This document shows positions 41,957-63,236 of a stretch of DNA of 64,000 bases, one piece after another. The DNA comes from a virus. Numbering within the stretch: position 1 is the first letter of the stretch; every line of letters begins with the position of its first letter. The notes beneath the pieces were generated by a model, which saw nothing but the letters and a program-made list of their open reading frames with translations, had not been told where the DNA came from and ran no database searches. The translations under genes were made by a program, and so were the position numbers. The stretch spans positions 32,001-96,000 of IMG/VR virus record IMGVR_UViG_3300010885_020782; one strand, given 5' to 3'.

Positions 41957-42655
41957 TTTAAAAAGCCGTACAGGGATGGGCTAAGACTATTGGACGAAAG
42001 CATTGAAACTATGAACCTTTCCATTAAATGCTTTTGGCCTGTGAGAAGGTACCGCTTATATTTGGGGTCTTTCCAAATCGTTTCCGGGAAAATAACATTT
42101 TGTTATCAAAACTTTTGTTTTGTAACTTTTTGTTATAGAAAGGCAAGGGCATATAGATTTTATTTTATTTATATAACAAAAAGTTATTTTTTAACATAAC
42201 TAATGTGTATCAACAAACTTGAGTCAATGCGACTCAACTTTCTTATGAACTATGACTCAAGGTGGGTCTTAGTTATTTATTTATCTATCTAATAGGCTTG
42301 CTTAGGTCTAATAACTATAAACAACTTCTCAAAGTAAAGGCTTGCCAAGATGTCTAGTAAGAAATCTAAAGCAAGGTAGTCAAGTAATAATTTCTAGCAG
42401 GGGGGTGGGGGTCTAGATATATGTAACAGGTCTTTACTTGTCTAGGCTCTAACAGGGGGGTAGGTCTGCCTAGAAAAGTAAAGGGGGTAGTAGGTATCTA
42501 ATAACTTTACTACTCATTAGTAACATAGGATGGAAATGTGGGGTAAATCACAGGGGAGATAGTGCTAATGGTCTTGCGTTATCTCTATGCAGATGTAATA
42601 CTTTAGACATACAGAAACCGCAGGGGTTATGTATAGAAAAGAAAAGGGGAAACAA

Positions 42656-42910
42656 ATGTCAGCATATGGAACCGCAGTTACTATCAAGGGAACTACTTAC
42701 CGCTACATCATTGACACAAAAGAGCAGGTAAGAGAACTTCTACTAGGTGCTACCGCACCTATCGAGAAGGTAGAAATCCAAGAAGAAACTCGCGGAGAAC
42801 CTCACCGCGAGATGAGTGCAGAGGAAATCCTTTACCTCGTCCTCAATCACCCAACACCCGCAGAGGTTGAAGAGAAAGATGTCGTAGTCCTAGCGACTAC
42901 ATCAGCCTAA
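42656..42910 (+). CDS. cassette hypothetical protein
   Basis: Own promoter, RBS AAAGGGGA and terminator. Confidence 0.75.
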   Translation: MSAYGTAVTIKGTTYRYIIDTKEQVRELLLGATAPIEKVEIQEETRGEPHREMSAEEILYLVLNHPTPAEVEEKDVVVLATTSA

Positions 42911-42922
42911 AGAGTTACAGAG

Positions 42923-42950
42923 AAGCCCCCGCAGAAATGTGGGGGTTTTT
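42923..42950 (+). terminator. intrinsic terminator
   Basis: AAGCCCCCGCA...TGTGGGGGTTTTT. Confidence 0.8.
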
Positions 42951-43055
42951 CTATGTGGTGCAACTCACACGAAATAGGAAAGAAAAATCGTCAATGAACT
43001 TGCACTATCCGTAAAAAGATTATATGCTTAGGCTAACAAAGAAAGGGGGAACAAA

Positions 43056-43277
43056 ATGTCAGTAGTTGAAATCCAAGTCAGCCCGCTACAACTCTTCATC
43101 TTGAAGCAGGGTCTAGAACTTGAAATCAAAACGGAATTGCGTATGCAAATGTCCGCAGAGTCAAGCCTAAAGGCGTTCAAGCGTCTAACAGGTATTGACA
43201 CAGGCAGAGGTCTAAAGGGTCGTGAAAAGGCTCTAGACATAGTTATAGACTTCCTGAAGCAAGTAGGGGAAGAATAA
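43056..43277 (+). CDS. cassette hypothetical protein
   Basis: Own promoter, RBS and terminator. Confidence 0.75.
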   Translation: MSVVEIQVSPLQLFILKQGLELEIKTELRMQMSAESSLKAFKRLTGIDTGRGLKGREKALDIVIDFLKQVGEE

Positions 43278-43288
43278 GTCTGGAAAGG

Positions 43289-43316
43289 AAAGCCCCCCGC
43301 AAGGGGGGTTTTCTCT
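43289..43316 (+). terminator. intrinsic terminator
   Basis: CCCCCC-GCAA-GGGGGG followed by TTTTCTC. Confidence 0.8.
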
Positions 43317-43546
43317 TGCAGGAAAAGACAGGTAAAAAGTAAAAACTTGCGAGCGCAAAGTTATCCACACCCTGTGGATAACTTTCACTTCCCAACAACT
43401 TCCGCAGGGGTGCAAATGTGTGGTGCAACTCACACGACATTTTTAATCTTTTTTGCCAAATGTGGTTGCGTTACCCGTAGCCAACCCTTATACTTCAGTT
43501 AGTGGAAATCGCAAGGGGCGATGGATACAAAGGGGAGATGATAGAA

Positions 43547-43921
43547 ATGTCTTACGGCTCATTTCACAATCTACTTGCTGGGAACAGTAAGTCCCTTACC
43601 GAAATTGAAATCGGTATGGGCGCAACACAAATCGGCTGGTCTGACCGCTACGCCTACACAGTAGTAGGGTTCGAGCGTTTCAAGACAGGTGCAAAGGCTG
43701 GACAAATAAAGGCAGTAATTGCCACTCGCGACATTGCAAAGCGCACAGACTCAAACGGCTACTACACAGAGAGCCAAGATTACGAGTTCACTACCAATCC
43801 AAACGCTAAGCAAGAACGCTACACACTCCGCAAAGATGGTCGCTTTATGCGTGAAGGCGCAACTAATTCAGGCGTTCTCCTAGTCGGTGTGCGAATGGAA
43901 TACTTCGACCCACACTTCTAA
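43547..43921 (+). CDS. cassette hypothetical protein
   Basis: GMGAT..GWSDRYAYTVV motif. A leaderless GTG start at 43502 is an alternative. Confidence 0.75.
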   Translation: MSYGSFHNLLAGNSKSLTEIEIGMGATQIGWSDRYAYTVVGFERFKTGAKAGQIKAVIATRDIAKRTDSNGYYTESQDYEFTTNPNAKQERYTLRKDGRFMREGATNSGVLLVGVRMEYFDPHF

Positions 43922-43932
43922 AGTCGGAAAGG

Positions 43933-43963
43933 AAGCCCCCTCGGAAGAGGGGGTTTCTTTTTT
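43933..43963 (+). terminator. intrinsic terminator
   Basis: CCCCCTC-GGAA-GAGGGGG followed by a T-tract. Confidence 0.85.
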
Positions 43964-44144
43964 GCTGGAAAAATTAAAACTATGTAAAAAGTAAAAACTT
44001 GCGAGCGTCAAAAAATGTGATGCAACTCACACCAGCACATCTAAACAATTTTCCCAAATGGTCTTGCAACTACTCAACTAATTAGATACACTTAGACCAA
44101 GAAGCCAAGCCACAGGGGGCAAGGCAACTAACAAAGGGAAGCAA

Positions 44145-44408
44145 ATGTCTAAACTAATCACAGACGCAGAACTAATCGCAGTAATGAACGGCACAAACAA
44201 AGACGGAAAGAAAGTCTTTCTTGCACTTTTTGAGCCACGAAAGAACTCACTTCCACAAATGGACGGACGCTCCGTAACCTTCCACGCAGACACTAAGGCA
44301 GAGGCAGAACGCCTAGCCAAAGAATACGGCAGAAGGATTTTGGATAGACGCTTAGCGTATCTAATGTCTTGCGAGGTTGAGGAAGCCCGCTACGGACTTC
44401 GCTACTAA
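44145..44408 (+). CDS. cassette hypothetical protein
   Basis: Own promoter, RBS AAAGGGA and terminator. Confidence 0.75.
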   Translation: MSKLITDAELIAVMNGTNKDGKKVFLALFEPRKNSLPQMDGRSVTFHADTKAEAERLAKEYGRRILDRRLAYLMSCEVEEARYGLRY

Positions 44409-44418
44409 AGTTAGCGAG

Positions 44419-44450
44419 AAGCCCCCGAGAAATCGGGGGTTTCTTTTTTT
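44419..44450 (+). terminator. intrinsic terminator
   Basis: CCCCCGA-GAAA-TCGGGGG followed by a T-tract. Confidence 0.85.
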
Positions 44451-44612
44451 GCATTTTATTTTTTGATTTTGAGTAAAAAGTAAAAACTTAGTGGCTAGTG
44501 CTCGCAACTTCCAAACAACTTTTAGACACCGCACAGGGGGTGGAGAGAAATGGGCTTGCATTGTTGCAACATATCTTGTATGCTATATCTACCAACTACG
44601 AAAGGAAACAAA

Positions 44613-44906
44613 ATGCAATTCACAATTGACCCGCAACTAGGTTCAGGCACTTCACTCAAAGGTTATGTAACTTCAACACTTGCAGAACTTATTGAAACCT
44701 TCGGAGAGCCCGAATACTTCGCAGAGGGCGACAAAGTAACAGTAGAGTGGTCAATCCTTTTTGATAACGGCACAGTCGCAACAATCTACGACTGGAAGCG
44801 TTACGAGATGGGAAGACCTGCACTCACCGAGGTATTCCAATACAACATTGGCGGACACGACCACGAGGCAGTAACGCTAGTAAAAAAGGCACTCCGCAAG
44901 GGGTAG
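44613..44906 (+). CDS. conserved phage hypothetical protein
   Basis: GTSLKGY...FGEP...DKVTVEW...ATIYDWK...NIGG pattern. Confidence 0.75.
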   Translation: MQFTIDPQLGSGTSLKGYVTSTLAELIETFGEPEYFAEGDKVTVEWSILFDNGTVATIYDWKRYEMGRPALTEVFQYNIGGHDHEAVTLVKKALRKG

Positions 44907-44973
44907 TCTCCCGACTTGCAATCAGTAATCCTATGGGTTATGCTTGCTATAAGACAAACTACGAAAGGAACAA

Positions 44974-45585
44974 ATGACAACAGAGACAACGAAAAACGCT
45001 ATACCGAAACGAGTTACATATAAAATTGTGGCTAGTGGGGAAGGAAAAATCATCAAGCGAAAGCAAGAACTTCCGCAAGATGTATTAGATATCTTCAAGG
45101 GTATTAGCGACATAAAGCAACGCAACCAATACATAATTGCATTGGGCGAGGCTGGCTGGACGGACTCTTCTATTGCAAGGGCAGTAGATGTTTCACGGGA
45201 ACGAGTAAGGCAACTTGCTCAACAAACAACGAGCGACACTTCTCTCATTGGTGATTTACCAATCCCAAAGCCACCGCGAGAAACAAAGTATTCTAAAGTC
45301 TATCCCGAACTTCCAAAAGAAATGCTTGACAGACTATTAGAACTAAAACCACTTGCCCAACAGGTAAGAGGACACGGCAAGATGTATCGTGCAGAGGCAG
45401 ATGAATACACCTACCTTCTCAATCAAGCAATAACAACTCAAGGCATTTCCGTATATCGTCTTGCAAAGTTATTGGGTGTAACTATTGGTGCAATCCAATT
45501 CCGCTTGACACGATACGGCTACCGAACAACAACAGGAAAAAGTAAGTGCTTCCAACCAATTCTAGAAAAGAACCGCCGTGGCTAA
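44974..45585 (+). CDS. double helix-turn-helix DNA-binding protein
   Basis: GWTDSSIARAVDVSRERVRQL and GISVYRLAKLLGVTIGAIQFRL. Confidence 0.8.
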   Translation: MTTETTKNAIPKRVTYKIVASGEGKIIKRKQELPQDVLDIFKGISDIKQRNQYIIALGEAGWTDSSIARAVDVSRERVRQLAQQTTSDTSLIGDLPIPKPPRETKYSKVYPELPKEMLDRLLELKPLAQQVRGHGKMYRAEADEYTYLLNQAITTQGISVYRLAKLLGVTIGAIQFRLTRYGYRTTTGKSKCFQPILEKNRRG

Positions 45586-45697
45586 ACCGCAACAATGTAG
45601 TAAATGTCAGGCGTGGTTCAATCCTAAGTTCGGTGGTGGTGGAGAGGGGTTATGTAAACCCTGCCACTATATTGAAATGAAGAAGGACAAAGAGTAA
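45578..45697 (+). CDS. 39-aa CxxC...CxxC microprotein
   Basis: Manual translation: MAKPQQCSKCQAWFNPKFGGGGEGLCKPCHYIEMKKDKE. Confidence 0.5.
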   Translation: MAKPQQCSKCQAWFNPKFGGGGEGLCKPCHYIEMKKDKE

Positions 45698-45847
45698 ATG
45701 AAAGAGTTAGACGACCACGAGTTTCTTGGTGCTTGTCCAAAGTGCCAACAACTTATACAAGGTGCAGAGGTGTATGACCGCGAGCGTGGGTGGATTACAG
45801 TATGGATTCACGCACACTCAAGACGAAGGCTCTGCTTAGTGGCATAA
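45698..45847 (+). CDS. 49-aa Cys/His microprotein
   Basis: MKELDDHEFLGACPKCQ...WIHAHSRRRLCLVA; follows the previous stop directly. Confidence 0.5.
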   Translation: MKELDDHEFLGACPKCQQLIQGAEVYDRERGWITVWIHAHSRRRLCLVA

Positions 45848-45883
45848 GAAAACCCCCTAGACGAATAATCTAGGGGGATTCTT
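45847..45883. terminator. bidirectional terminator at convergent junction
   Basis: AAGAAAA-CCCCCTAGA...TCTAGGGGG-ATTCTT between convergent genes. Confidence 0.75.
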
Positions 45884-46195: not shown

Positions 46196-46289
46196 CCTTC
46201 CTTGTCCTGCACAGAGCGTAAAAAGTAAAAACAACGCTCGGCTAGTCAATTTTAGATGACCAACCGAGCGTTGATTATTGAAAAGGTGT

Positions 46290-46721
46290 TTAGGCTACGA
46301 CTTCTACCGCAGTGTTCTTGAATAACTTAGTAATAAGTTTCTCATCTAGGACGAGTTCTTGGGTAGAACAACCACAAAAGTCAGCAAGGGCTTTTTTAGT
46401 TCCTTCGCTTAGGTGTCCGCGACTATCAGAACCTGCGTCATCAAACCCGAGAACAATAAGTTGTTCTTGAACTAAGGCGACAGACGCAGAGTTGTGAGCA
46501 AACTTGTTTCCAAGCGCAGACAACGAAACAACTCCCGCAGTTGTTGAAACAACAGCAGGGGACTTTTTACTTTTTACTACTGGTTCAGGCTCGACAGCCA
46601 CAGCAAGAACAGGGGCAGGTTCTTCAACCACAGCCACAACCTCTACAACGGCGTCAGAAGCCTTTACTACTTCAGGCTCTACCGCAGGGGTAAAGACACT
46701 ATAAAGGTCTTCATTACTCAT
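46290..46721 (-). CDS. protein with C-terminal peptidoglycan-binding-like domain
   Basis: SASVALVQEQL..LGF...G.L..GTKKALADF resembles PG_binding_1. Confidence 0.5.
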   Translation of the reverse strand: MSNEDLYSVFTPAVEPEVVKASDAVVEVVAVVEEPAPVLAVAVEPEPVVKSKKSPAVVSTTAGVVSLSALGNKFAHNSASVALVQEQLIVLGFDDAGSDSRGHLSEGTKKALADFCGCSTQELVLDEKLITKLFKNTAVEVVA

Positions 46722-47916: not shown

Positions 47917-48116
47917 TTGATACCCCCCTTTCAAGACAAAGCATATAACACTCCATCATAGAAGTCAAGGGCAATTAGAAAGGAATCAGGAAGAAGTTGT
48001 TGGGAAGTTGTGAAACCTGGCGAGCGCGAGGGCTTGGAGATACGCATAAAAAGTAAAAACTTACCCGCACAAAAAGAAACCCCGCACAAGGCGGGGCTTC
48101 TTCGTGGCAAAGTTAT

Positions 48117-48248
48117 TTATTCAAGACCTAACCACATCTCAAAACCTGCGTCTTCAACAACAACGACATCTTCAACTTCAAGAGTGTCGTCTTCGTCTTC
48201 AGCCCAAGGGTCATATTCAAGACCATTGTTATCAATATTTACAGACAT
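48117..48248 (-). CDS. 43-aa highly acidic microprotein (missing from ORF track)
   Basis: MSVNIDNNGLEYDPWAEDEDDTLEVEDVVVVEDAGFEMWLGLE, with own promoter (48277-48305), RBS AAAGGGGA and terminator (48071-48100). Confidence 0.7.
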   Translation of the reverse strand: MSVNIDNNGLEYDPWAEDEDDTLEVEDVVVVEDAGFEMWLGLE

Positions 48249-48384
48249 TGGAATCCCCTTTCAATTTGTTAGGCACAATATAACAGTCTTCAGGCAGTAA
48301 AGCAAGGAAGTTGTTTAGAAGTTGCCCGCAGCGAGGCTTGGACTCACGCATAAAAAGTAAAAAGTCCCACGGGAAAAAACGCTA

Positions 48385-48651
48385 CTAATCTTCGTAGTAG
48401 CGATTTTCGCAGGAACGCGAACCACAGTTGGCATAGCGAACCCCCGCAAGGCGGAAGGGAATGTCCCCGCCACAAATCTCGCATAGGGGAATGCACTTCG
48501 AGCAGAAATCGCCCAAAGACTCTGCGGGCTTACCGCAGTCAGGGCAGGTGTGCGACAACTCCGCACAACGCCCGCATAGGTGCGAACCACGCACCACAGA
48601 AATATCATCAGAAGCGTAGCCACAGTTGGCGCAAGTGTTGGAATCGAACAT
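48385..48651 (-). CDS. multi-CxxC zinc-finger protein
   Basis: Six Cys pairs in 88 aa; own promoter. Confidence 0.65.
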   Translation of the reverse strand: MFDSNTCANCGYASDDISVVRGSHLCGRCAELSHTCPDCGKPAESLGDFCSKCIPLCEICGGDIPFRLAGVRYANCGSRSCENRYYED

Positions 48652-48797
48652 AAAAATACCCCCCGAGAATTAGATGAACAACGCAATAATAACTAACATC
48701 ATCTAAAAAGTCAAGCAAGCAGAAGAAAAGAAAGGCTGTAAGTGGGGGAAGTAACCTACAGCCTAACTCTCGGAGAAGTAGGAAAAAGGGGTTTAGC

Positions 48798-48950
48798 CTA
48801 CTTCTCTCGACTTGCTAAGGTTGCAGAGGCAACCGCAGACAAGCCCAAACTAATAGACCACGCCACACTACCTTGCCAAGACGCCACGAAAGACGCCACG
48901 ATAAACAAGATAGTTCCAACAGCAGTCCAAACTATATTCAAGTTGTTCAT
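48798..48950 (-). CDS. 50-aa two-TM membrane microprotein
   Basis: Manual translation: MNNLNIVWTAVGTILFIVASFVASWQGSVAWSISLGLSAVASATLASREK. Confidence 0.6.
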   Translation of the reverse strand: MNNLNIVWTAVGTILFIVASFVASWQGSVAWSISLGLSAVASATLASREK

Positions 48951-49153
48951 TTGTTTCCCTTCTTTCCTTTAGGACTTGTGCGTCCTTTAGTTCTAGCAGA
49001 GGGGTTTCTTATTTCAGCCCCACCACCTTGAATTGCTTTGCGAGCGCAACGATAGGACACGGCAAGTTCTCTAGCCACATCATCTATCGAAAGACCACCG
49101 CGATACAAAGAACTTGCGCTGGCTTCTAACTTTTTACTTTTTGCTACTCTCAC
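48947..49153 (-). CDS. small helix-turn-helix DNA-binding protein
   Basis: LYRGGLSIDDVARELAVSYRCARKAI plus a basic tail. Confidence 0.75.
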   Translation of the reverse strand: MRVAKSKKLEASASSLYRGGLSIDDVARELAVSYRCARKAIQGGGAEIRNPSARTKGRTSPKGKKGNK

Positions 49154-49635
49154 GCAGACTTGTCCTCTTCATCTTCGTAAGGTCGTTGAACCGCGTTACG
49201 AATTACCGCAGGGTCTAATCCCTTGTCCCTCAGCCATTGAGCAGTCTGTGGGTCTTGTGCGTTGTCTGTAACGTGCCTTCCTTCGTTCCAAGTAAAGAAA
49301 GAAGTTGTTCCTTCAGGTAGAACCCAAAGATGGTATTGGTTAGAGGTATCAACAAGTTGGCTTTCAGGTGGAAAGATTTCTACGGCTTCTCTTTCAGAAC
49401 CTGCAAGTTCGTTCTTGATACGCTGGAAGTGTCGCCAATCTCTAATAGCCTTGCGTTCGTTATGACGAATCGAAAGGTGAAGACCACTGGTTTCTCCAAG
49501 TTCAGGTTCTAAAATTGTCTTGACGACAACATAAAACCTGTTCTTCCAAATTGTTTGATGGGGTTCAAGGTCAATCTTCTTCCCATTTACAGTTGGAGTT
49601 GCTTCCTCGAACTTATCCCAAAGGGGCTTAGTCAT
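49150..49635 (-). CDS. conserved hypothetical protein
   Basis: HLSIR...DWRHFQRIKNELAG.EREAVEIFPPESQLVD..N.YHLW widespread motif. Confidence 0.7.
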   Translation of the reverse strand: MTKPLWDKFEEATPTVNGKKIDLEPHQTIWKNRFYVVVKTILEPELGETSGLHLSIRHNERKAIRDWRHFQRIKNELAGSEREAVEIFPPESQLVDTSNQYHLWVLPEGTTSFFTWNEGRHVTDNAQDPQTAQWLRDKGLDPAVIRNAVQRPYEDEEDKSA

Positions 49636-54945: not shown

Positions 54946-55010
54946 TTGGTATCCCCCTTTCCCTGTAAGGCAATAATAACACTAGGTGCAACCCTAAGTC
55001 AAGTCCATTT

Positions 55011-55767: not shown

Positions 55768-55827
55768 TTCATTTCCCCTTTTCATTTGGTCTTGCTAAGG
55801 CAAGTATAAGACCTGCCATAGCAAAAG

Positions 55828-56064
55828 TCAAGTATTCTTTTTATTCTTTTTTGACTCTTGAAACTTTTCTTCGCAAGAGTAGTTGTAGCAAACATTGTCC
55901 TTGTCGGTGTTATACATAGAAAGTTTCTTTTCGCAGATAACGCAGAAGCGAGTGTTTTTATTTATTTGCGTTGGTGTTCTACCCGGCCCCGCAATACCGC
56001 GACCCGCGTAATGAGTTGGGCGAATATAAACTCTGCCAAACTCGTCAAACTCTACTGAATCCAT
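55828..56064 (-). CDS. hypothetical zinc-finger protein
   Basis: CVICEKKLS.YN...C..YSC. Confidence 0.55.
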   Translation of the reverse strand: MDSVEFDEFGRVYIRPTHYAGRGIAGPGRTPTQINKNTRFCVICEKKLSMYNTDKDNVCYNYSCEEKFQESKKNKKNT

Positions 56065-56279
56065 TTCTTCCCCTTTTCTTTATTAGGTTCAGTAGGGGAG
56101 TCGTATTGTTTCCGCCCCTTGCAAGTTATAGGCGTTCAGGTGACCAGCGACTTTCCCCCTACTGAATACCCTAAGTATAACCAAAAGGGGAAGAAAGTCA
56201 AGTCCTCTAGGCACGACACGCCAAAGTTATTTGGAAGTTGCCCTCGCAGCGAACGCCGGCGAGCGCAAGTTTTTACTTT

Positions 56280-56855
56280 TTACTTCTCCCCGTAATACTG
56301 AACATTTATGTAAATCGGTGGGGCAGAGTTCGGGTCAAGTTTGGTGGCAATAGTTAGGGCTTGTCTAACCAAAGTCTTAGCCGTAGATAAAGTTCTTTTA
56401 CGGGTTTCCATAGTTCCAAGTAAAGAACCAAGTGCGTAGGAAGAACCTGTTCCGATAGCGTAGATACCGCTTTCATCTCTAGCCCAAGAGTAGTCGTTGC
56501 CTATCTCATAGATAGTCCCGTTGATTACGACCATCACATTACTGTCGTTATCGCTATCTTTGGAGTAAGAGTTTTCCTCAAAACATTTCTTCATTTCAGG
56601 GATAAAGGAAGCCGTCATAAATTTGTCTAACCTTAGACCATAGGTTGAGGGGCTAATGATGGGCGGTTTGAATATGTAGCAAAGAATATTTATGGCTCTA
56701 ACATCTCCAGCCACGCCAATGATGTAGTTCCCGTTCTTGAACATCTTGCCATTATCTTTTGGAAGTGAGTAAATCTTTTCGTTCTCCTCGGTTACCCGTG
56801 AGTCATATCCAACGACAGCCCAGTTCTCCCCTTGCACGCCAGCAATAGTCGTCAT
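56280..56855 (-). CDS. proteasome beta-subunit/HslV-like Ntn-hydrolase
   Basis: N-terminal M-TTIAG, YDSRVT, conserved K (GKMF), GVAG and AIGTGSSYALG. Confidence 0.8.
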   Translation of the reverse strand: MTTIAGVQGENWAVVGYDSRVTEENEKIYSLPKDNGKMFKNGNYIIGVAGDVRAINILCYIFKPPIISPSTYGLRLDKFMTASFIPEMKKCFEENSYSKDSDNDSNVMVVINGTIYEIGNDYSWARDESGIYAIGTGSSYALGSLLGTMETRKRTLSTAKTLVRQALTIATKLDPNSAPPIYINVQYYGEK

Positions 56856-56893
56856 CTTCTTCTCTCCCGTTACCCTTCAGTTTTTACTTTTTA

Positions 56894-57145
56894 CTACTTC
56901 CAGAAGCCGTCCCAGAGTTCTTCTCTAAGTTGTTCATACTTATCGCCGTGATGCCCGTTGTATTTCGCAGAAATATCTTCACCTCTAATGAGATAGTCTA
57001 GCGAAAGAACGGCGGTATAGTCAGTATCGCCAAACATAATAACAAGTTTAGCGTCCCCGTCAGAGGGGTCATCTACAATAGCAACAACGAAAGGCTCGCC
57101 AGAGCCGTTAGCGTGAAAGTCCTTAGCAATAATATCCATACCCAA
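56894..57145 (-). CDS. hypothetical protein
   Basis: DFHANGSGEPFVVAIV motif; stop codon overlaps motif A. Confidence 0.6.
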   Translation of the reverse strand: MGMDIIAKDFHANGSGEPFVVAIVDDPSDGDAKLVIMFGDTDYTAVLSLDYLIRGEDISAKYNGHHGDKYEQLREELWDGFWK

Positions 57146-57226
57146 AAGGGTAGGGGTTTTTTATACAGGTGATTTGGACAAAAAGAAACCCCTGCCGTTA
57201 GACAGGGGCTTCCTAAGTGTTTGCCG

Positions 57227-57424
57227 TTAGGAAACGGACACCCATTTGTGAGCCGTGCGAAGAACATTAGCGTAGTCGCCAGCCATACTTTCATCAAGGA
57301 AGCGGTTGATTTCTTCCTGTGAAACGCTTGCTCGGCGCAGAGCCGTAGCCACTCGTCCCATAATCGCAACGGCGTTGCCGTCTTGACCTGATAGCGCAAC
57401 TTCTATGTGGTCGTATTTTGCCAT
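57227..57424 (-). CDS. conserved small phage protein
   Basis: LSGQDGNA.AIMGRV..ALRR...GDY..VL pattern; own promoter and terminator (57180-57212). Confidence 0.7.
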   Translation of the reverse strand: MAKYDHIEVALSGQDGNAVAIMGRVATALRRASVSQEEINRFLDESMAGDYANVLRTAHKWVSVS

Positions 57425-57473
57425 TTGGTTTCCCCCTTTCTTTCCTCTAATTTTACTCGCTTGCTATCGTAAG

Positions 57474-57596
57474 TCAAGAACCGCACTCGGCGTGTCGCCT
57501 ACAATGAGTCCAGCAAGTTCCGCATACTCCGCAATGGTCTATCTGTGAGCCAACATCATAAGTTGTTTGGCAGTAGTCGCAAGAGCCAATGTCCAT
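57474..57596 (-). CDS. 40-aa Cys/His-rich microprotein
   Basis: CDYC...HCGVCGTCWTHC; own promoter and RBS. Confidence 0.6.
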   Translation of the reverse strand: MDIGSCDYCQTTYDVGSQIDHCGVCGTCWTHCRRHAECGS

Positions 57597-57816
57597 TTGT
57601 TTCCCCTTTTTGTTTGTAAGAGCAAGTATAGCAAAATAATTTAGAAAGTCAAGAATAGATACACACCGACTTCCCACAAGACAGGGGAAGGGGAAGTCGG
57701 CGGAGCAGAGAAGGGTATGTCTGCTCTCATCTAGGCAAGGCAGAAAGGGGAACGCCTCGCACTAGGTGGTTCTATTTTACACCGAAGTTTTTACTTTTTA
57801 CTTCGGCAAACCGCGT

Positions 57817-58164
57817 TTAGATTTTATCCACAATGGCTATGGGGACAATGACCTCGGCAGAAATAGTTTCGCCATTACCCGACTTTCGGGCGAACCGCCC
57901 TGTGGGGTTATCCAGCATTACAGTAATCTTGCTTCGCCTAATGCCAACAATTTGTGCTGTTTCGCCGACAAGGTATTTAGTTCCGCAACGCTCGTTGATA
58001 CGAACCTTGTCGCCAACTAGGAAGTCAGAAAGTTTTAGCGAACCGCGCTTCTCCTCAATTCGTTTATCAACCGCTTGACGCAAGATTTGTAAGTGGCTAT
58101 CAAGTTCTCCACTCTCTATCTTGTCTGTAAGTGAAACAATAAAGTCTAAGTTAGTCGTCGTCAT
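57817..58164 (-). CDS. hypothetical protein with KOW/SH3-like C-terminus
   Basis: DFLVGDKVRI...LVGETAQIVGIRRSKITV. Confidence 0.6.
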   Translation of the reverse strand: MTTTNLDFIVSLTDKIESGELDSHLQILRQAVDKRIEEKRGSLKLSDFLVGDKVRINERCGTKYLVGETAQIVGIRRSKITVMLDNPTGRFARKSGNGETISAEVIVPIAIVDKI

Positions 58165-58387
58165 TTTCTATCTCCTCTCCATTTTCATCTACGACACCAA
58201 TGTCGTTAGATACTTTGGCAACATCAAACCCATAGTATTCTTCCATAAAGATAGAAGCGCAACGAATAGCGAAGTCGTTATCGCTCTCTCCTTCGTTTCG
58301 CAATTCATTATGAAGAACGATAGTGGTCATTAGCGTAAAGTAATCGCCAACGAACATTACTGTTCTTGAAAGATTTATCTCGTCCAT
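58151..58387 (-). CDS. acidic hypothetical protein
   Basis: Clean, coupled ORF. Confidence 0.6.
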   Translation of the reverse strand: MDEINLSRTVMFVGDYFTLMTTIVLHNELRNEGESDNDFAIRCASIFMEEYYGFDVAKVSNDIGVVDENGEEIENDDD

Positions 58388-58617
58388 TAGTTATTTAGCC
58401 TACTTATGAACTCGCCAAACTTTTGGTCAAGGTCGTCAGAGGTTGAGCCATCAGGTAAGGTGAAAAACTTTTCACTACCTTGATAAGAGTATGTCCAAGT
58501 GCCTGTCTTCTCGTCCCAAATAGTTCCATCAGGAAACCGCACTTCTTCACTCTCAACATCAACCGACCAATGGTTTAGGTTGTCGTCATACTTCACTACG
58601 AAATGGTGTTCAGCCAT
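58387..58617 (-). CDS. hypothetical protein
   Basis: Own promoter and RBS AAGGGAGA. Confidence 0.6.
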   Translation of the reverse strand: MAEHHFVVKYDDNLNHWSVDVESEEVRFPDGTIWDEKTGTWTYSYQGSEKFFTLPDGSTSDDLDQKFGEFISRLNN

Positions 58618-58677
58618 TTTATTTCTCCCTTTCTTTCTTTGACTTATTATTCCACTACCCTAGTGGAAAGTCAAATC

Positions 58678-59829
58678 CTATTTTGCTAGGACATAAACCT
58701 TGTCTTTCATAACCAAAGGTTTGTCGTCCGGCCCCTTTACATAAGGTGCTATCCAAATCCGCTTCTTAGTATTGTCCTTGTAAGGTTGCCATCTCCAATG
58801 ACCGCCGACTACCCATCTGTGCGACCAATCTATGAAGCGACCATCATCAGACTTTTCTCCACTCTTGTATTCTGTTTTGCGAAGTTGCACAACAACATAC
58901 TCGCTAGGAAGTTTTGCCTTCTCCATAGACTTTCTAATTCCGCGTTGAGGTGTTTTCTTTTCAGTAGATACAATAGTTTGCGACATCATCAAAAAGTATG
59001 CGTGCATAAATCGTGGAAAGTTATCCATACCAACGAAATCGTTTTGATAGTTCTCTTTCCAATAGTCCGCGTCTAACTCAAATTGTTCTTGTCGCTTTTT
59101 TCCGCCGACCTTTTCTCCGTGTCCAGCAGACTCAACGGAAGAGAGCAACCACTTACCAACATTTCTACGGAACTCCGCAACACTCTTTCCTGTTGCCTCT
59201 GCTGTTCTTTCTAGCATAGGCATAGAGTCGTCAGCCATTACATCAAAATTATTGAATAAGTAATAAACAATTTGTCTATCTTGCATTTCCCAAAGAACGG
59301 CGTGGATTATGTATTTGTTTCCTTCTATGTCGTTTGTTTCTACGCCCTTCTCAAAGTAAGCAAAGCCTCTAAGACTAGGGACAAGTTCTAAGTCAAAGGT
59401 ATCTGTTTCATCTAGTTGATTAGAAGCGAACGCAATTACATCTGTCATTTCGCCTTTTACTAAATAAACATCAGCCTCTTCAGTAATCGTAACCATTTCC
59501 TTGACCATAGTTTCGGCAAGGTCAATTTTTGTTTTACCTGTTCTCATAGTCCCTGTTAGAGATAGAGCCTTCTTCTCTGTATCAAAAGTAACCGCAGAAC
59601 CATACTGCGCTACATTGTTTAGGCAGAATAGTTTTTGTCCATAGAAGAACAACGCACCTTTTTTGCCAGCAAGTTCTGTTTTGTATTTAGCAAAAATATC
59701 CCTAACAATTTCATCTTCTTCATCTCTGCACTTTACAGATAGGACATTAGTTAGGACATAACCCGCATTACCTTTTAGGCGCAGGTTTAGGTCGTTGAGT
59801 AGCGTAAGCGTTTCATCAGGTCTAATCAT
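58678..59829 (-). CDS. conserved phage protein with C-terminal HRWVVGGHWRWQ...IWIAPYVKGP motif
   Basis: 383-aa ORF with own promoter TTGACT-N17-TATACT. Confidence 0.75.
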   Translation of the reverse strand: MIRPDETLTLLNDLNLRLKGNAGYVLTNVLSVKCRDEEDEIVRDIFAKYKTELAGKKGALFFYGQKLFCLNNVAQYGSAVTFDTEKKALSLTGTMRTGKTKIDLAETMVKEMVTITEEADVYLVKGEMTDVIAFASNQLDETDTFDLELVPSLRGFAYFEKGVETNDIEGNKYIIHAVLWEMQDRQIVYYLFNNFDVMADDSMPMLERTAEATGKSVAEFRRNVGKWLLSSVESAGHGEKVGGKKRQEQFELDADYWKENYQNDFVGMDNFPRFMHAYFLMMSQTIVSTEKKTPQRGIRKSMEKAKLPSEYVVVQLRKTEYKSGEKSDDGRFIDWSHRWVVGGHWRWQPYKDNTKKRIWIAPYVKGPDDKPLVMKDKVYVLAK

Positions 59830-59883
59830 TTGTTTCCCCTTTTCATACCCTAAGTATAAAACTATCTTTCCCCAAAGTCAAGT

Positions 59884-60336
59884 CTATTCTTCGTCCCACT
59901 CTTCCGAGTCTTCGTCCGAGTTTTCTTCCTTAGACTTATAGACAACTTCCTCAACAGGCATAAAGTCCAATAAGTCTAAGTCCTGCGTCAAGTCAAGAAC
60001 TAGACACTCTTCGCACCTCTTGTAGTCAATAGACCTCTCAAAGTGGCGAAGTTCCTCTATGGAAACATCTAAACCACTCTCCATCTTGGCAAGAATAATT
60101 CTTGTCCGCAAAGCCCTATGCTCTAACATATTTTGAGCATAGACATAATCTTCGTGGCGAATAAGGTCAGAGTCTTTGATTTGCTTTTCCTGTGTCTTGC
60201 AAGTCGGCAACCAAAGTGTGTCTTTATCTATGATTAGTTCGTAACCATCATCAGAAGTTTTAGTTGAGATAGGTTCGTAACTATGTAGAACTTTGCTAGT
60301 TAGTGGGTTGTGCGTGTATTTTCTTTTGTTAGTCAT
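59884..60336 (-). CDS. hypothetical protein, probably leaderless
   Basis: ATG 6 nt after the -10 box at 60343-60348, with no RBS. Confidence 0.6.
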   Translation of the reverse strand: MTNKRKYTHNPLTSKVLHSYEPISTKTSDDGYELIIDKDTLWLPTCKTQEKQIKDSDLIRHEDYVYAQNMLEHRALRTRIILAKMESGLDVSIEELRHFERSIDYKRCEECLVLDLTQDLDLLDFMPVEEVVYKSKEENSDEDSEEWDEE

Positions 60337-60468
60337 AGTGCAACCTTATCAAATAGTTTTTGGTTTTGCAACTTATCTCTCCCCTGCGTGTCGTTTGTGT
60401 TTTTACTTTTTACTATCCCTGTTTTGTAAGAAACCCCCCACCCTTTCGGGTGAGGGGCTTCCTCGCAA

Positions 60469-60855
60469 TTACTTGCCTGTCTTGAGAGCCTTGTAAGGGG
60501 CTGGAATTGTGAAGTCCTTGAGTAGGGCTTCAACTGTTGGGTGTGTCTTGAAAAGGTTTTCCTTATCAAGTTTTGTAGCGTTGATTGTTGCAACACGCAC
60601 AACAACATTACCTGCAACTGTTCCTGCTTCCGCAGTTCCTACCCACTCATCATTTACGAGTGTGTATCCGAGTAGTGCATAGAGTTCAGCCTTTAGAGCC
60701 TTCTCTGTATCTTGATTGGCTTTGATAGTGTCTTTCACGCTATCAAGTTTTACAAGCAGTTCGCTTGCATTAGTTGCGTCAAGCGCAACTTGCGTTGTAG
60801 TAACAGATGTAACAACCTTTGTTGTTACTTCTGTTTCAACTTTGGTTCTAGGCAT
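60469..60855 (-). CDS. coiled-coil hypothetical protein
   Basis: Own promoter; terminator at 60428-60462. Confidence 0.65.
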   Translation of the reverse strand: MPRTKVETEVTTKVVTSVTTTQVALDATNASELLVKLDSVKDTIKANQDTEKALKAELYALLGYTLVNDEWVGTAEAGTVAGNVVVRVATINATKLDKENLFKTHPTVEALLKDFTIPAPYKALKTGK

Positions 60856-60989
60856 AAGCCCAATTCCCTTCGTCGTTTTGTATTTTTACTTCATTAGGTA
60901 TCTGACCTAACAAAGAGAACTTTACCCTTTTGCCAAGCGATAAGCAAATCCAAATGAGCGTGTCGCCAAAAAATCTTTTGTGATTTGGC

Positions 60990-61205
60990 TCACACCTTTC
61001 CCCACGCTCGGGCTTCTGTGTATGGCTCTGCCACAAAGTCAGCCCCTTTGATTAGGTCATAAGGAAAGTCAGCCTTAGCCCTTGCTTCTCCAATGCGCTC
61101 GGCTTCGGCTTCGGTTTTGGCTTCTACTTCGTAATAAGCATTTGTTGCGGTTTCATCTTCAGAGAAGTATCCACGCACTATCCACTTTTTACTTTTTACT
61201 TTCAA
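60990..61205 (-). CDS. hypothetical protein (start uncertain)
   Basis: A TTG start near 61205 is inferred from an upstream GGAG; motif A lies in the first codons. Confidence 0.45.
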   Translation of the reverse strand: MKVKSKKWIVRGYFSEDETATNAYYEVEAKTEAEAERIGEARAKADFPYDLIKGADFVAEPYTEARAWGKV

Positions 61206-61355
61206 TCCAGTTTCTCCACTTCTATCTCGGTTGAGCGTGAGAGGTCGTGTCCATACTCGTTCTCCAACCACTCTCTTGCTTGTGTTTCAGCACCCCGTTG
61301 CGTTTCGGAACTCACCTCTGTCCCGAAGTGGGAGATGAAGGTGGCTTTCCAGCGG

Positions 61356-61601
61356 TTAGTCATTAGGGCTTGCCGTTTCTGCTAATACCTCGTTCGCTAA
61401 ATCTACGAAGTCTTCGGCAGCAGAACTTTGGAAATACCACTCGCCGTCTTCATACTTGTCGCAGACTTGCTCCCATTGTTCGTCCGTCAAGGTCAAGCCG
61501 TCTGCGTATCCTTCAACACACTCTTTGTCCCAGTATGCAACAAGCAACTCGGTTTCAGGTGCGTATGCCGTTAGTTGTTCTATTAGTTTTTTTACTTGCA
61601 T
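61356..61601 (-). CDS. acidic hypothetical protein
   Basis: Motif A lies 1 nt upstream of the ATG. Confidence 0.65.
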   Translation of the reverse strand: MQVKKLIEQLTAYAPETELLVAYWDKECVEGYADGLTLTDEQWEQVCDKYEDGEWYFQSSAAEDFVDLANEVLAETASPND

Positions 61602-61763
61602 AGTTTTTACTTTTTACCTTTCTTGGTTATGCGCTCGCCAGTTGTCGGTTAGGTTCGTGCGGTAGTGGAACATCTCCACGCCAATCACAAACCGAGCCGT
61701 TGTATGTATCTATCCACATACCAAAATCTTGCTTTACTTCCCAGCCACACTTGCGACAGATAT

Positions 61764-62003
61764 TCACTCTTGCCACCCGCCCGTCATAACTTCCCAACAA
61801 CTTGGGTGCGTGCCTGTAATCATTTGCTCACGCAACGCCTTATCCATTTCAGGGTAAGCGTCTTGAATAGCACCGCCTAATTGGCGAATAAGAAATCCCT
61901 TCATAGGAACTTCAACTGTTCCACCCTTGCCACACATTGTGCAAGTAGGGGTTTCAACTATGTAAGTTGTTTCCTCTACTACCTTTCCGAACTCTGTTTC
62001 CAT
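61764..62003 (-). CDS. zinc-ribbon phage protein
   Basis: CTMCG...IQDAYP...REQMITGTHPSCW. Confidence 0.7.
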   Translation of the reverse strand: METEFGKVVEETTYIVETPTCTMCGKGGTVEVPMKGFLIRQLGGAIQDAYPEMDKALREQMITGTHPSCWEVMTGGWQE

Positions 62004-62042
62004 TTGTTTCCCTTTCTAGTTGGTTGGCTAATAATAACAAAA

Positions 62043-62570
62043 TTAAAAGTGGAAGTCAATCGGCACTAGGTATTGGCGTGTCGGGTCTTTCTCCACTCGT
62101 TCCCAAAAGAACTCTAGGCTTGCCGAGTGTTCCTTTAGGTCATAAACACCTGTATCAGAACACCAATCATTAGAGAGAAGTCGTCCTAACCGCAGTAAAG
62201 ACCAAGCGTCCATAGTTGAGCCATAGTTATACTTGTTTGGGTTGTAGTCCTCAACAAGTTGTTCTAGGTTGAAGCCTTCTGTTTTTATTTGTTCTAGGTA
62301 TCGCAACATTTCTTTTTTACGATAACTAGCAAAGTCTTTGATAATGTCGTTTGCAAGAACGGGGTTCTCTGTGTATGCAAGAACATCTCTGTTCTCTTCC
62401 CAGCCTTCAAACAATCCTGACCAGCGACCAGCAAGCCCTTCGTCAAGACCCCCGTGCCAATCTGACCACGCAGGGTATGGAGTTTCTGAATAAGTAATAG
62501 TTGTTTTGGCGTAGTCAATAGCGTCCTGTGCGCTATCCGCTTCAATCAACATAATCTGACAAGTGTGCAT
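62043..62570 (-). CDS. conserved hypothetical protein
   Basis: WSDWH....AGRWSG and C-terminal YLVPIDFHF; motif A overlaps the ATG. Confidence 0.7.
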   Translation of the reverse strand: MHTCQIMLIEADSAQDAIDYAKTTITYSETPYPAWSDWHGGLDEGLAGRWSGLFEGWEENRDVLAYTENPVLANDIIKDFASYRKKEMLRYLEQIKTEGFNLEQLVEDYNPNKYNYGSTMDAWSLLRLGRLLSNDWCSDTGVYDLKEHSASLEFFWERVEKDPTRQYLVPIDFHF

Positions 62571-62625
62571 TTTTACTTTTTACCCTTTCTTTCGTTCTTG
62601 GTTGAGAACTATTATCCCATTTTAT

Positions 62626-63066
62626 TTATGCAAAGTCAAGTAGCAACATCTTTTCATTTTCATACTGTTCCTTCACATAGGAACTCGCACTTTGGAGAGC
62701 CTCTGAAATACTGTCGCATACCCAATCTAAATGCTCTCCGCGACAATACAAGTCAAACCAGTTGTTGTTGTCCCAGTTCAAGGCGTTCTCGCCATTAGCA
62801 AGGCGTAAGTCCTCATCACAATTTATACCTAAGCCATAAAAATCTGACGCAGTTCTAAGGATTGTTTCTGTTGGTTCGTGGATTACACGAACTTCTCCAT
62901 CTGCATAAACATCTACCTCAAACCCTTTATAGGAAACTTGGCAGATAAATCCATCACCTTCATACCAAAGGCTATCGTCTTGTTTTTCTAAGTTGGGAGC
63001 AACTCCAGAAAACATAGAAGCCCAAACAACTTTTGAACCTTCTAATAATTCTTCTACTGTTTTCAC
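62626..63066 (-). CDS. hypothetical protein
   Basis: GTG start after GAAAGGA. Confidence 0.6.
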   Translation of the reverse strand: MKTVEELLEGSKVVWASMFSGVAPNLEKQDDSLWYEGDGFICQVSYKGFEVDVYADGEVRVIHEPTETILRTASDFYGLGINCDEDLRLANGENALNWDNNNWFDLYCRGEHLDWVCDSISEALQSASSYVKEQYENEKMLLLDFA

Positions 63067-63236
63067 TTCTATCCTTTCGTCATTGGTTTTTACTTTTTAC
63101 TAAGTAGTAAGTGAAACCCCACAAAGGGGGTAAGGGGGCTTCACCTACTTAGGGTGTTGGTTCGCAGGTTCAGTTGTGGTGGAACTGACTTGCGTTGGAA
63201 GGACGCACCACACGAACCAACACTTCTTTTAGAACA

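Follow-up and report, generated by a model that had tools for sequence, protein, structure and literature searches.

The array of small genes in a 127-kb freshwater actinophage genome (a siphovirus) probably consists of early-region cassettes that are separated by promoter–terminator linkers and exchanged by recombination within these linkers, much like the promoter-early stem-loop (PeSL) cassettes of T4-like myoviruses (Arbiol et al. 2010, PMC2839356; Comeau et al. 2014, PMC4122927). The linker elements exist and occur far above chance frequency, near-identical genomes differ in cassette content and order, and crossovers are located within the linkers. As PeSL cassettes have so far been known from T4-like phages only, the array would be a PeSL-like system outside that group.

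In the arrangement that we propose, small genes, mostly without known relatives, would be driven by about 20 strong host sigma-A-type promoters, with intrinsic terminators insulating the units. About half of the promoters would be situated in linkers of about 100–150 nt, which run from the terminator through motif A, a G+C-rich spacer, motif B and CGTGTC to the −35/−10 and a very strong SD. Such linkers would punctuate and probably co-regulate transcription and, because they recur, would also provide short homology patches for general recombination. Recombination at the linkers, presumably by the phage's own Sak4-like protein and exonuclease, would allow entire cassettes to be lost, gained, replaced or moved and leave the genes intact.

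Source phage and layout of the array

The genome contains siphovirus-like structural genes, and the portal is best matched by that of Actinomycetia phage DSL-LC01 (74% identity), followed by Microbacterium phages. Judged from its genes, the source is an uncultured lake phage that infects actinobacteria. There is no tyrosine integrase, only a small serine recombinase, and the lifestyle looks lytic. The Sak4/exonuclease pair that the earlier note had placed at 1–1522 is encoded at 3–1522 of the window (the whole stretch of 64,000 nucleotides that was analysed; Table 1).

The array extends past the window to about 73 kb (window coordinates), and its expression is presumably early. Spacers of at least 45 nt are found on both flanks of 25 of the 52 array genes. 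A Pfam scan of 40 array proteins left nearly all without a family, and matches were limited to an HslV-like peptidase, an SLT lysozyme-like domain, an HTH protein and DUFs; a host-takeover or anti-defence role, which the earlier note had proposed for the array, gains no support from the scan. The array had been described as autonomous single-gene cassettes that share one control block. Single-gene units are indeed present (about 10–15), but the approximately 52 genes are distributed over about 25 units, some of which hold two to eight genes. The A–B block does recur, but at about 10 promoters, i.e. about half of them, and the uniformity was overstated.

Table 1. Positions in the window of the array and its elements
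Feature	Position	Strand	Remarks
Hyperplastic early/non-structural array	42537–63142	both
Divergent block of seven genes	42656–45847	+	substitutions vs G001 mainly at third codon position
Its genes 1–4	42656–42910, 43056–43277, 43547–43921, 44145–44408	+
Its genes 5–7	44613–44906, 44974–45585, 45698–45847	+
203-aa protein, two HTH motifs	44974–45585	+	candidate array regulator
Bidirectional terminator hairpin	45853–45877		divides plus-strand from minus-strand block
HslV-like peptidase gene	56280–56855	−
Sak4-like annealing protein	3–596	−
Exonuclease	593–1522	−
Predicted sigma-A-type promoters	47940–62639	−	consensus matches; conserved −35/−10
−35 starts of these	62639, 62059, 59881, 58674, 57652, 57477, 56201, 55831, 55002, 54635, 54182, 53726, 53159, 52832, 51995, 50855, 48714, 47968	−
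Weaker predicted promoter, TTGCGT-N17-TATACT	43466–43494	+	CRP-like palindrome about 75 nt upstream of predicted start
Predicted promoter similar to the preceding one	44064–44092	+
Predicted intrinsic terminators	42922–42953, 43293–43308, 43937–43953, 44416–44445	+
Predicted intrinsic terminators	46232–46273, 48073–48097, 48380–48402, 52253–52280, 52921–52950, 53248–53283, 54351–54378, 54721–54749, 57182–57213, 60428–60461, 63111–63142	−
Motif A	43332, 43984, 44473, 46218, 48046, 48350, 52192	+
Motif A	46564, 49131, 49802, 50904, 52893, 53219, 54325, 54695, 56270, 56881, 57788, 60400, 61186, 61604, 62570, 63087	−
Motif B, nine listed copies	43387, 44507, 47994, 48308, 52845, 53172, 54280, 54648, 56224
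CRP/GlxR-like palindromes, TGTGRTGYAACTCACA	42537, 42954, 43419, 44016	+
Further CRP/GlxR-like copies	52120, 54202	−
Cassette X	54715–55003	−	promoter, 60-aa ORF 54763–54945, terminator
Cassette Y	54175–54640	−	promoter, 62-aa ORF 54392–54580, terminator, A, B
Cassette with 46-aa ORF 52963–53103	52911–53214	−	missing from G002; crossover within motif A
Cassette with 124-aa ORF 43547–43921	43356–43921	+	missing from G002; crossover at terminator 5' flank
150-nt segment with 46-aa ORF 50920–51060	50927–51076	−	G000 only; bounds are SD and motif A
Replaced block with 88-aa zinc-ribbon-like ORF 48385–48651	48368–48684	−
ORF 55828–56064 block	55833–56063	−	replaced in G001, missing in G002

Promoters, terminators and linker motifs

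The predicted sigma-A-type promoters have the consensus CTTGACTT-N16-17-TTATACT. The minus strand between 48.7 and 62.1 kb holds all 14 sites in the window that match the pattern TTGACT-N16-18-TATWMT (0.20 expected), and a generic promoter scan (10/12 matches) gave 16 sites, every one of them on the minus strand. Some 20 promoters are credible, and the figure of about 29 near-consensus promoters in the earlier note was an overcount; its minimum of 14 intrinsic terminators agrees with the roughly 16 strong ones counted here. These are the sites with a strong G+C hairpin and a T run among 35 terminator-like sites in the window (18.8 ± 3.5 in shuffles). The hairpin upstream of motif A has a folding energy of −23 to −34 kcal/mol. 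Promoter and terminator activity, like the autonomy of the units, is predicted from the DNA sequence.

Motif A, GTAAAAAGTAAAAA (≤1 mismatch), is present in 23 copies in the window (0.05 expected) and in 30 copies genome-wide, all within 75.3–105.1 kb of the genome. Motif B, ACTTCNNAAYAACTT (≤1 mismatch), consists of two AACTTY half-sites 11 bp apart and occurs 16 times (0.36 expected), and the CRP-like site TGTGRTGYAACTCACA five times (0.24 expected). The order terminator, A, G+C-rich spacer of about 30 nt, B, CGTGTC, −35/−10, SD and ORF was found at all six places for which it had been claimed, and the linkers at 54278 and 54646, said to be near-identical, share 85% identity over 40 nt. A fixed spacing of A, 32 nt, B, 12 nt and −35 occurs three times. 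In five of the nine listed copies, the end of motif B is 12–25 nt upstream of a −35; the distance is 97 nt at 54280, and for the copies at 43387, 44507 and 48308 no downstream promoter was identified.

Compared with three relatives (85–95% identical), mismatches amount to 0% in the −35, 3% in the −10 and 1.3% in motif A, as against 17.9% in the promoter spacer and 17.4% at codon position 3. By this measure of substitution, the −35, the −10 and motif A are under purifying selection. Motif A is also kept in many relatives with 73–82% portal identity.

Cassette exchange among relatives

G000 was compared with three relatives (85–95% identical) from other metagenomes. Cassettes are mosaic among these genomes: some are lacking, replaced or in another order, and the junctions lie within linkers. 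Cassette X is missing from G001 and is located after cassette Y in G002 and G003, the opposite of the order in G000, with the junctions at the −35 CTTGACTT. Cassette Y is missing from G004; in G002 and G003 its protein has 100% identity, while the neighbouring genes are 73–83% identical. Where G002 lacks the cassette with ORF 52963–53103, its single linker follows the left linker of G000 as far as motif A and from there on the right one. ORF 48385–48651 is swapped for unrelated sequence in G001, G002 and G003, the limits of the block being the −10 of a promoter and an inverted motif A; the block of ORF 55828–56064 extends between this ORF's ATG and the next promoter's −35. The comparison of cassette content and order that the earlier note had proposed thus finds both to vary, with breakpoints in the linkers, and its suggestion that the linkers provide homology for cassette exchange is supported by crossovers inside motif A, at the 5' flank of a terminator and at the −35.

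The compared genomes were all assembled from metagenomes, and a cassette might be skipped in assembly where linkers are repeated. Every genome is a short-read assembly, the linkers have 24–90 nt in common, and the absences of g55337, ORF 52963–53103 (g52963) and ORF 43547–43921 (g43547) are seen in G002 only, i.e. in one assembly. We nevertheless consider it highly improbable that the cassette differences are artefacts of this kind. Several recur in independent assemblies: for Y before X, for the loss of g48117, for the missing 150-nt G000 segment and for the block replaced at 48.4–48.7 kb alike, the evidence comes from two or three assemblies made from separate samples, and the replaced blocks hold different real sequence, which goes beyond mere deletion.

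Of 39 unique breakpoints, 23 are located within 12 nt of motif A, −35, −10 or SD (p = 5e-11), elements that cover 13.6% of the region; the breakpoints were taken from BLAST ends, which tend to stop at conserved elements, and since gene-sized indels must end between genes anyway, some of the enrichment would arise with no special mechanism. The array might be an ordinary multi-promoter early region, in which the repeats are needed consensus signals, illegitimate indels are filtered by selection and the linkers are uninvolved. In keeping with this, 10 of the 39 breakpoints are inside genes, some replaced blocks have no flanking repeat, and variable genes are only weakly enriched for stand-alone ones (10/25 versus 5/27, one-sided p = 0.08). 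Relatives that lack motif A are promoter-dense as well, with at least 33 extended −10 promoters in DSL-LC01 and 14 sigma-70-like sites in locus L137. However, the enrichment at control elements holds within non-coding DNA (23 of 29 breakpoints versus 40.6% expected, p = 2.5e-5), three junctions switch cleanly between homologous linkers with 8–90 nt common at the crossover, and one cassette is found at two different positions. An ordinary region of this type is quite unlikely, and exchange through the linkers is the reading that we prefer.

Motif A and a candidate regulator

Motif A points in the direction of transcription in 26 of the 30 genome copies, the other four being inverted. About a third of the copies adjoin start codons or sit in 5' leaders, and two are inside ORFs; motif A is not merely an upstream promoter element. 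It may be an operator for the phage's two-HTH protein, acting in the manner of a stoperator or roadblock, a reading that we put forward tentatively. The N-terminal HTH motif of this protein resembles sigma region 4.2 and the C-terminal one ParB/KorB, the structural matches being weak (Z 4.5–6.4), and a paralog is encoded at genome positions 118055–118636. The HTH family is present in genomes with motif A and missing from those without it, namely G007 and DSL-LC01 (both complete) and eight loci. About 10 other genes co-vary with motif A just as the HTH family does, and the co-occurrence may reflect a single evolutionary event.

The strong orientation bias, the location of sites just after terminators and just upstream of genes and the likeness of the co-occurring protein to sigma region 4.2 would also suit a phage-specific promoter or start element that a modified host RNA polymerase reads to produce middle transcripts with a short leader or none. 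Actinobacteria commonly have leaderless mRNAs, and among the relatives there are at least 12 cases in which the motif's final A doubles as the A of the ATG or the ATG comes no more than 4 nt later. Such a role is unlikely, as motif A has neither a T at −7 nor a −35 partner and its distance to the start codon varies from −1 to about 150 nt. Furthermore, the four inverted copies are conserved and used as terminator T-tracts, and in three lineages one copy is part of a 5' leader and has a sigma-A-type promoter upstream.

Motif A could instead work in RNA at gene junctions, where it might be a processing site or control translation as an operator or enhancer. Roughly one copy in three sits either between a stop codon and the SD that follows or between the ATG and an SD-like purine run, a placement that is kept at orthologous junctions of diverged relatives; for the HslV-like peptidase gene, motif A is found between its SD and the preceding stop codon in all four lineages examined. 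The motif also contains TAA in two frames. Against this, in about 10 units motif A precedes the promoter and is not part of the following gene's mRNA, the four inverted copies keep their linker place in G001–G003 (one also in G004), and Rfam gives no family match. We regard an RNA role as unlikely.

Comparison with known systems

The stoperators of cluster A mycobacteriophages, bound by L5 gp71 (McGinnis et al. 2022, PMC9283540), resemble motif A in number (20–30 copies), in being an asymmetric 13–14-mer in short intergenic spaces oriented with transcription (PMC9283540), and in the pairing with a candidate cognate protein that is about 200 aa long and has two DNA-binding motifs; both are found in actinophages. 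None of the motif A copies overlaps a promoter, however, and four are inverted, whereas inversion abolishes stoperator function (PMC9283540). The array phage, unlike stoperator phages, has no tyrosine integrase and looks lytic, and its two-HTH protein is not similar to gp71 in sequence and matches it only weakly in fold (Z 4.5). Binding and an elongation block by analogy with stoperators are putative. The RK2 KorB network would be similar in that one HTH regulator serves some dozen operators or more, which vary in their distance from promoters. The C-terminal domain of the candidate best matches the ParB/KorB DNA-binding fold, though weakly (Z 6.0–6.4); the KorB operator is palindromic and belongs to a plasmid rather than a phage.

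Start-associated sequences (SAS/ESAS) of cluster K mycobacteriophages are 13–14-mers directly upstream of the start codons of a gene subset. Motif A shares with them a conserved 13–14-mer directly before start codons in an actinophage, but the sequences are unrelated, and motif A is also found far upstream of promoters, inside ORFs and inverted. The ribosome-binding site is part of SAS; motif A, by contrast, is found between SD and ATG or before the SD.

The host-takeover module of SPO1 and the pre-early region of T5 likewise place many small genes, each behind a strong host-sigma promoter and with a strong RBS, in a dedicated genome segment; neither Pfam nor PHROGs gave protein homology of the array to them.

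From PeSL the array differs in host and phage lineage (an actinobacterial siphovirus), and the sequences look unrelated, as judged without direct comparison. The stem-loop is 100–150 nt upstream of the promoter instead of within or next to it, and motifs A and B and the CRP-like site are located between terminator and promoter. Mini-circles and promoter/terminator activity are described for PeSL, whereas the array is known from sequence alone. Both systems nevertheless consist of composite intergenic elements that combine a strong host-sigma promoter with a G/C-rich stem-loop terminator (PMC2839356, PMC4122927), and both are clustered in hyperplastic regions rich in genes without known relatives. 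Close relatives show indels, replacements and reorderings in either case, with crossovers at various points within the element, and the genes therefore carry their own expression signals along.

Phage identity and relatives

The record is 127,375 bp long (rated 95% complete in IMG/VR), and the window covers bases 32001–96000. The portal protein has 74% identity to its counterpart in Actinomycetia phage DSL-LC01 (Dishui Lake), the next matches being Microbacterium, Arthrobacter and Gordonia phages. This placement came from the protein search; a 10 kb query gave no match to GenBank phages (megablast). The actinophage-like portal and the G+C content of 43% point to a siphovirus of a low-G+C freshwater actinobacterium, and an N4-like or T5-like identity is ruled out by the tape measure and the portal. 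The sole integrase-type recombinase found in the genome is a small serine recombinase of the resolvase family (219-aa open frame); a tyrosine integrase (PF00589) was not found. The counterpart of the serine recombinase in DSL-LC01 led the authors of that study to call their phage lysogenic; they assigned it actinobacterial hosts, and promoters are absent from their discussion (PMC10611076). A search for tRNA genes in the window found none.

Relatives were identified in other metagenomes by a composite pattern and the portal protein, a 15-mer scan of IMG/VR being swamped by chance matches; IMG/VR holds more than 590 portal relatives. Three are close to our genome (G000), with 85–95% nucleotide identity: G001 (60 kb), G002 (36 kb) and G003 (17 kb). 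The more distant G004–G011 share 73–82% portal identity.

Architecture of the array

Reading frames were inferred from codon-position substitution patterns relative to the 90%-identical G001. The array comprises about 52 genes in about 25 units. Seven plus-strand genes (42.6–45.8 kb) are followed by a bidirectional terminator, and the remainder lie on the minus strand. Spacers of at least 45 nt are present on both sides of 25 of the 52 genes. The earlier note had described autonomous single-gene cassettes and about 29 promoters. The description is right in kind, and the order terminator, motif A, motif B, promoter, SD and ORF was found at all six places cited for it, but the array is less uniform: by reading of the map, only 10–15 units have a single gene with its own promoter and terminator, the others containing 2–8 genes, and the figure of 29 promoters is an overcount.

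A generic scan of the window gave 37 promoter-like sites (26.8 ± 5.2 in shuffles). The 16 best (10/12 matches) are all on the minus strand and all start with TTGACT. Copies of the exact pattern TTGACT-N16-18-TATWMT number 14 (0.20 expected), and the genome has none outside 47.9–62.1 kb of the window. Terminator-like sites number 35 (18.8 ± 3.5 in shuffles), about 16 of them strong. Motif A, an oriented 14-mer, has 23 copies in the window (0.05 expected), and the 30 copies of the whole genome span 75.3–105.1 kb; promoters and motif A copies together all lie within genome 75–105 kb. Motif B consists of two AACTTY half-sites spaced by one helical turn and has 16 copies (0.36 expected). The array is a real and statistically strong observation. 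The SD word AAAGGGGA/AAGGGGAA has 12 copies in the array region (genome 74–106 kb) and none elsewhere in the genome, which gives the array genes a ribosome-binding site of their own, and a very strong one. A CRP-like palindrome is present in five copies (0.24 expected), and its placement suggests host cAMP-receptor-type control of one promoter subclass. Perfect DnaA-box words also occur in the region.

Location of features in the phage genome and its relatives
Feature	Location	Remarks
Sak4-like annealing protein, exonuclease, helicase, DNA polymerase, tail proteins, tape measure, major tail, capsid, portal	window 1–42 kb (all -)	
CRP-like palindrome TGTGA-N6-TCACA, CRP/GlxR type	window 42537, 42954, 43419, 44016, 52120, 54202	~62–75 nt 5' of predicted starts, weaker promoters
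DnaA-box words TTATCCACA, perfect	window 43361–43381	inverted pair between motifs A and B
DnaA-box word TTATCCACA, perfect	window 52147–52155; 57.83 kb	one copy at each
Block missing in G002	window 43356–43921	
Candidate two-HTH regulator	window 44974–45585 (+)	203 aa
ORF, peptidoglycan-binding-like C-terminus	window 46290–46721	motif A at 46564–46577, translated V/A-KSKK
Block missing in G002	window 52911–53214	one promoter, 46-aa ORF, terminator
Cassette Y	window 54175–54640	single ORF
Cassette X	window 54715–55003	single ORF
Structured RNA	window 56080–56165 (-)	~85 nt, directly 3' of promoter 56174–56201
Promoter with nearest motif A	window 62611–62639	motif A ~+25 to +40 downstream
Repeat-rich stretch (L247)	genome 103150–103800 (~window 71150–71800, outside window)	~0.7 kb, non-coding
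Serine recombinase (L248)	genome 125472–125915 (+)	
Plus-strand homologs of g53297 and g51638 (L218, L219)	G004, 8.8–11.9 kb	by HTH gene
Extended -10 AGATTCTAAAGWTGTTATAATNGAATC within GATTC/GAATC inverted repeat, then leader CAACGACGAAAGGACAA-ATG	L127 (DSL-LC01, OQ999401) 22600–43330	at least 33 copies

Selection on the control elements

Compared with the three close relatives, the -35 hexamers have 0% mismatches, the -10 hexamers 3%, motif A 1.3% and the SD sequences 5.9%. The promoter spacers (17.9%) and third codon positions (17.4%) are far more divergent, and the 10 nt flanking motif A show 7–13%. The low values in the -35, -10 and motif A relative to the spacers match the footprint that true promoters and a true sequence-specific element should leave. 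From consensus and selection footprint, both are predicted to be functional.

Cassette exchange among relatives

About 15 of the 52 array genes are absent, replaced or less than 60% identical in at least one genome among G000–G003. Of 39 unique alignment breakpoints, 23 are no more than 12 nt from a control element (motif A, -35, -10 or SD), although these elements make up 13.6% of the region (p 5e-11); for non-coding breakpoints, the proportion is 23 of 29 against 40.6% expected (p 2.5e-5). Within the linker, crossovers are spread over four or more distinct parts. Two of the blocks missing in G002 have readable junctions. In place of the one with the 46-aa ORF, G002 has a single linker, which matches the left-hand G000 linker as far as motif A and the right-hand one beyond; the crossover for the other block lies at the purine-rich 5' flank of the terminator. 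Cassette X precedes Y in G000, whereas Y precedes X in G002 and G003; G001 lacks X, and G004 lacks Y. The X/Y junctions are at the -35 word CTTGACTT, and in G003, X is flanked by a direct repeat of about 23 nt. In other blocks, one ORF has been replaced by another, and the ends of the replacement lie at the -10, the ATG, the -35 that follows or motif A.

The cassette Y protein is identical between G000 and G002/G003, whereas the flanking genes are 73–83% identical, which points to a recent transfer of cassette Y alone. Several of the cassette differences recur in two to three independent assemblies, arguing against assembly error; those found in G002 only come from one assembly. The earlier note had proposed that cassettes are exchanged via their linkers. 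Cassette content among the relatives is indeed mosaic, breakpoints are enriched at linker elements and three junctions are readable, and the proposal is supported by this comparative evidence. Integron-type cassettes were rejected: there is no tyrosine recombinase, and crossover points vary rather than falling at a single defined recombination site, which argues against an integron-like site-specific mechanism.

Two genes of minus-strand cassettes, g53297 (DUF3846) and g51638, have homologs on the plus strand in G004. Over longer time, cassettes seem to have moved between both divergent blocks. The G004 genes could instead be paralogs, as their identity is just 42–49%.

Array proteins

Pfam families are absent for nearly all of the 40 array proteins scanned; those with a family are an HslV-like peptidase, an SLT lysozyme-like protein, HTH and zinc-ribbon-like proteins and three DUFs. 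For comparison with the SPO1 host-takeover module and the T5 pre-early region, Pfam and PHROGs gave no known host shut-off or anti-defence family, small fast-evolving proteins being easily missed by such searches; only by analogy are host-takeover or anti-defence roles plausible for the cargo. The variable cassettes are a natural place to seek host-interaction genes in phages of abundant, still uncultured lake actinobacteria.

Structured RNA and a repeat-rich stretch

The structured RNA has a predicted folding energy of -32.7 kcal/mol (z -2.2). It is near-invariant in G000–G005, with flanks about 70% identical, and two of its helices show compensatory changes. Rfam has no family that matches it (noise only at E up to 10), and none was found across 42–64 kb at E up to 0.1. 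In G004, it is directly followed by a promoter and not by an ORF; hence, it may be a stand-alone small RNA gene. The non-coding stretch L247 is dense in AACCG words and also holds AAGTTRTTGTGA words (motif B inverted), motif A and a run of 3.5 heptads. It might serve as a replication origin or as a regulatory hub.

Motif A and a candidate regulator

Motif A is intergenic in 28 of its 30 copies; the two in ORFs read as VKSKK. About 10 copies are located 48–145 nt 5' of a -35, and about 10 sit either 0–25 nt ahead of a start codon or in the gap from a stop codon to the SD that follows. Motif A is therefore more than a promoter-upstream element. Its orientation follows transcription in 26 of 30 copies (binomial p ~3e-5); the four inverted copies are conserved and double as terminator T-tracts. 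The variant GCAAAAAGTAAAAA predominates in diverged relatives. Position is kept at orthologous junctions despite diverged surroundings. One such junction, ahead of the HslV-like gene, has motif A in four lineages; in DSL-LC01, which has no motif A, it is a plain 25-nt spacer. In the ORF with the peptidoglycan-binding-like C-terminus, the nucleotides of motif A are exact in G004, G005 and G006 while flanking codons have diverged, and selection thus appears to act on DNA or RNA and not on the peptide.

A literature search with the motif A string gave only unrelated matches, and the 18-mer AGTAAAAAGTAAAAACTT gave single chance matches (A+T-rich genomes) among 185,579 prokaryote genomes, with no multi-copy host or prophage signal. 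Three other functions were rejected: a T5-type strand nick site, as orientation tracks transcription and not one strand; a frameshift slippery site, as there are only five A's; and a sigma-A -10 element, as there is no T at -7.

A family of HTH proteins of about 200 aa is present in motif A genomes (two paralogs in G000, 41% identical) and absent from the complete motif-A-less genomes G007 and DSL-LC01 and from eight motif-negative loci. About 10 other genes co-vary with motif A in the same way. The N-terminal HTH of the candidate regulator resembles sigma region 4.2. For the C-terminal HTH domain, the best matches, which are weak, are ParB/KorB (Z 6.0–6.4; VIA-align, model pLDDT 85.6); the match to the cluster A mycobacteriophage repressor 7tz1 is weak as well (Z 4.5 over 44 residues, VIA-align). 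A sequence match of the protein to the cluster A repressor was not found, and Foldseek against the PDB gave no significant match.

Comparison with known systems

In cluster A mycobacteriophages, stoperators are asymmetric 13-mers in more than 20 oriented copies, to which a monomer binds that has two DNA-binding domains (PMC9283540). Motif A likewise has more than 20 copies of an asymmetric 14-mer in short intergenic spaces, tied to the direction of transcription; it differs in that no copy overlaps a -35 or -10, whereas a stoperator site also acts as the operator of the early lytic promoter. Stoperator phages are temperate, and their repressor confers immunity; in our genome, PF00589 integrases were not found, and one resolvase-type recombinase is present. 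With the candidate two-HTH protein, it forms a close but unproven parallel to stoperators, and it may instead have its role at the promoter or RNA level. The 14-mer in 30 copies and the candidate regulator are a testable pair.

DSL-LC01 has no motif A; in its homologous region, an extended -10 promoter word (AGATTCTAAAGWTGTTATAAT) with a stereotyped leader occurs 33 times or more. As DSL-LC01 has a promoter word of its own, the promoter-per-small-gene architecture is family-wide and the cis elements are lineage-specific. A tentative picture, which we hold with rather low confidence, is that this large family of uncultured freshwater actinophages combines PeSL-type linkers, through which single genes could be swapped freely, with a network of the stoperator type that arose independently: a two-HTH protein, present as two paralogs, would bind about 30 oriented copies of GYAAAAAGTAAAAA and gate or shut off the cassettes of an apparently lytic phage, the whole cis-element set being swapped in sisters like DSL-LC01.

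To our knowledge, the only phages in which shuffling by PeSLs has been described are T4-like myoviruses, which infect Gram-negative hosts. A PeSL combines a sigma-70 promoter with a stem-loop; such composite elements lie in hyperplastic regions, and crossovers occur at varied points within them (PMC2839356, PMC4122927). Promoter and terminator activity in vivo and circular cassette intermediates (mini-circles) also belong to the PeSL picture. The linkers share several of these properties: a conserved intergenic element joins a sigma-70-like promoter and a stem-loop terminator in one recurring unit, the array sits in a hyperplastic region of genes mostly without known relatives, and indels and replacements between close relatives are bounded by the elements, with crossovers inside them. 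In contrast to PeSLs, the hairpin is 100–150 nt 5' of the promoter with extra motifs between; the lineage also differs, and the sequences look unrelated. Given these differences, we read the linkers as an analogue of PeSLs and not as a member by descent, the phage being an actinobacterial siphovirus. The linkers offer a concrete rule by which exchangeable cassettes can be recognised in phage genomes from metagenomes, and the array a set of natural (predicted) actinobacterial promoters, terminators and ribosome-binding sites. PeSL logic in a freshwater actinobacterial siphovirus family suggests a convergent, general mode of accessory-gene turnover in large lytic phages that leaves operons unbroken. 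By this comparison, the array is best described as a variant PeSL-type system in a phage and host group where none was known, to which a stoperator-like layer has been added.
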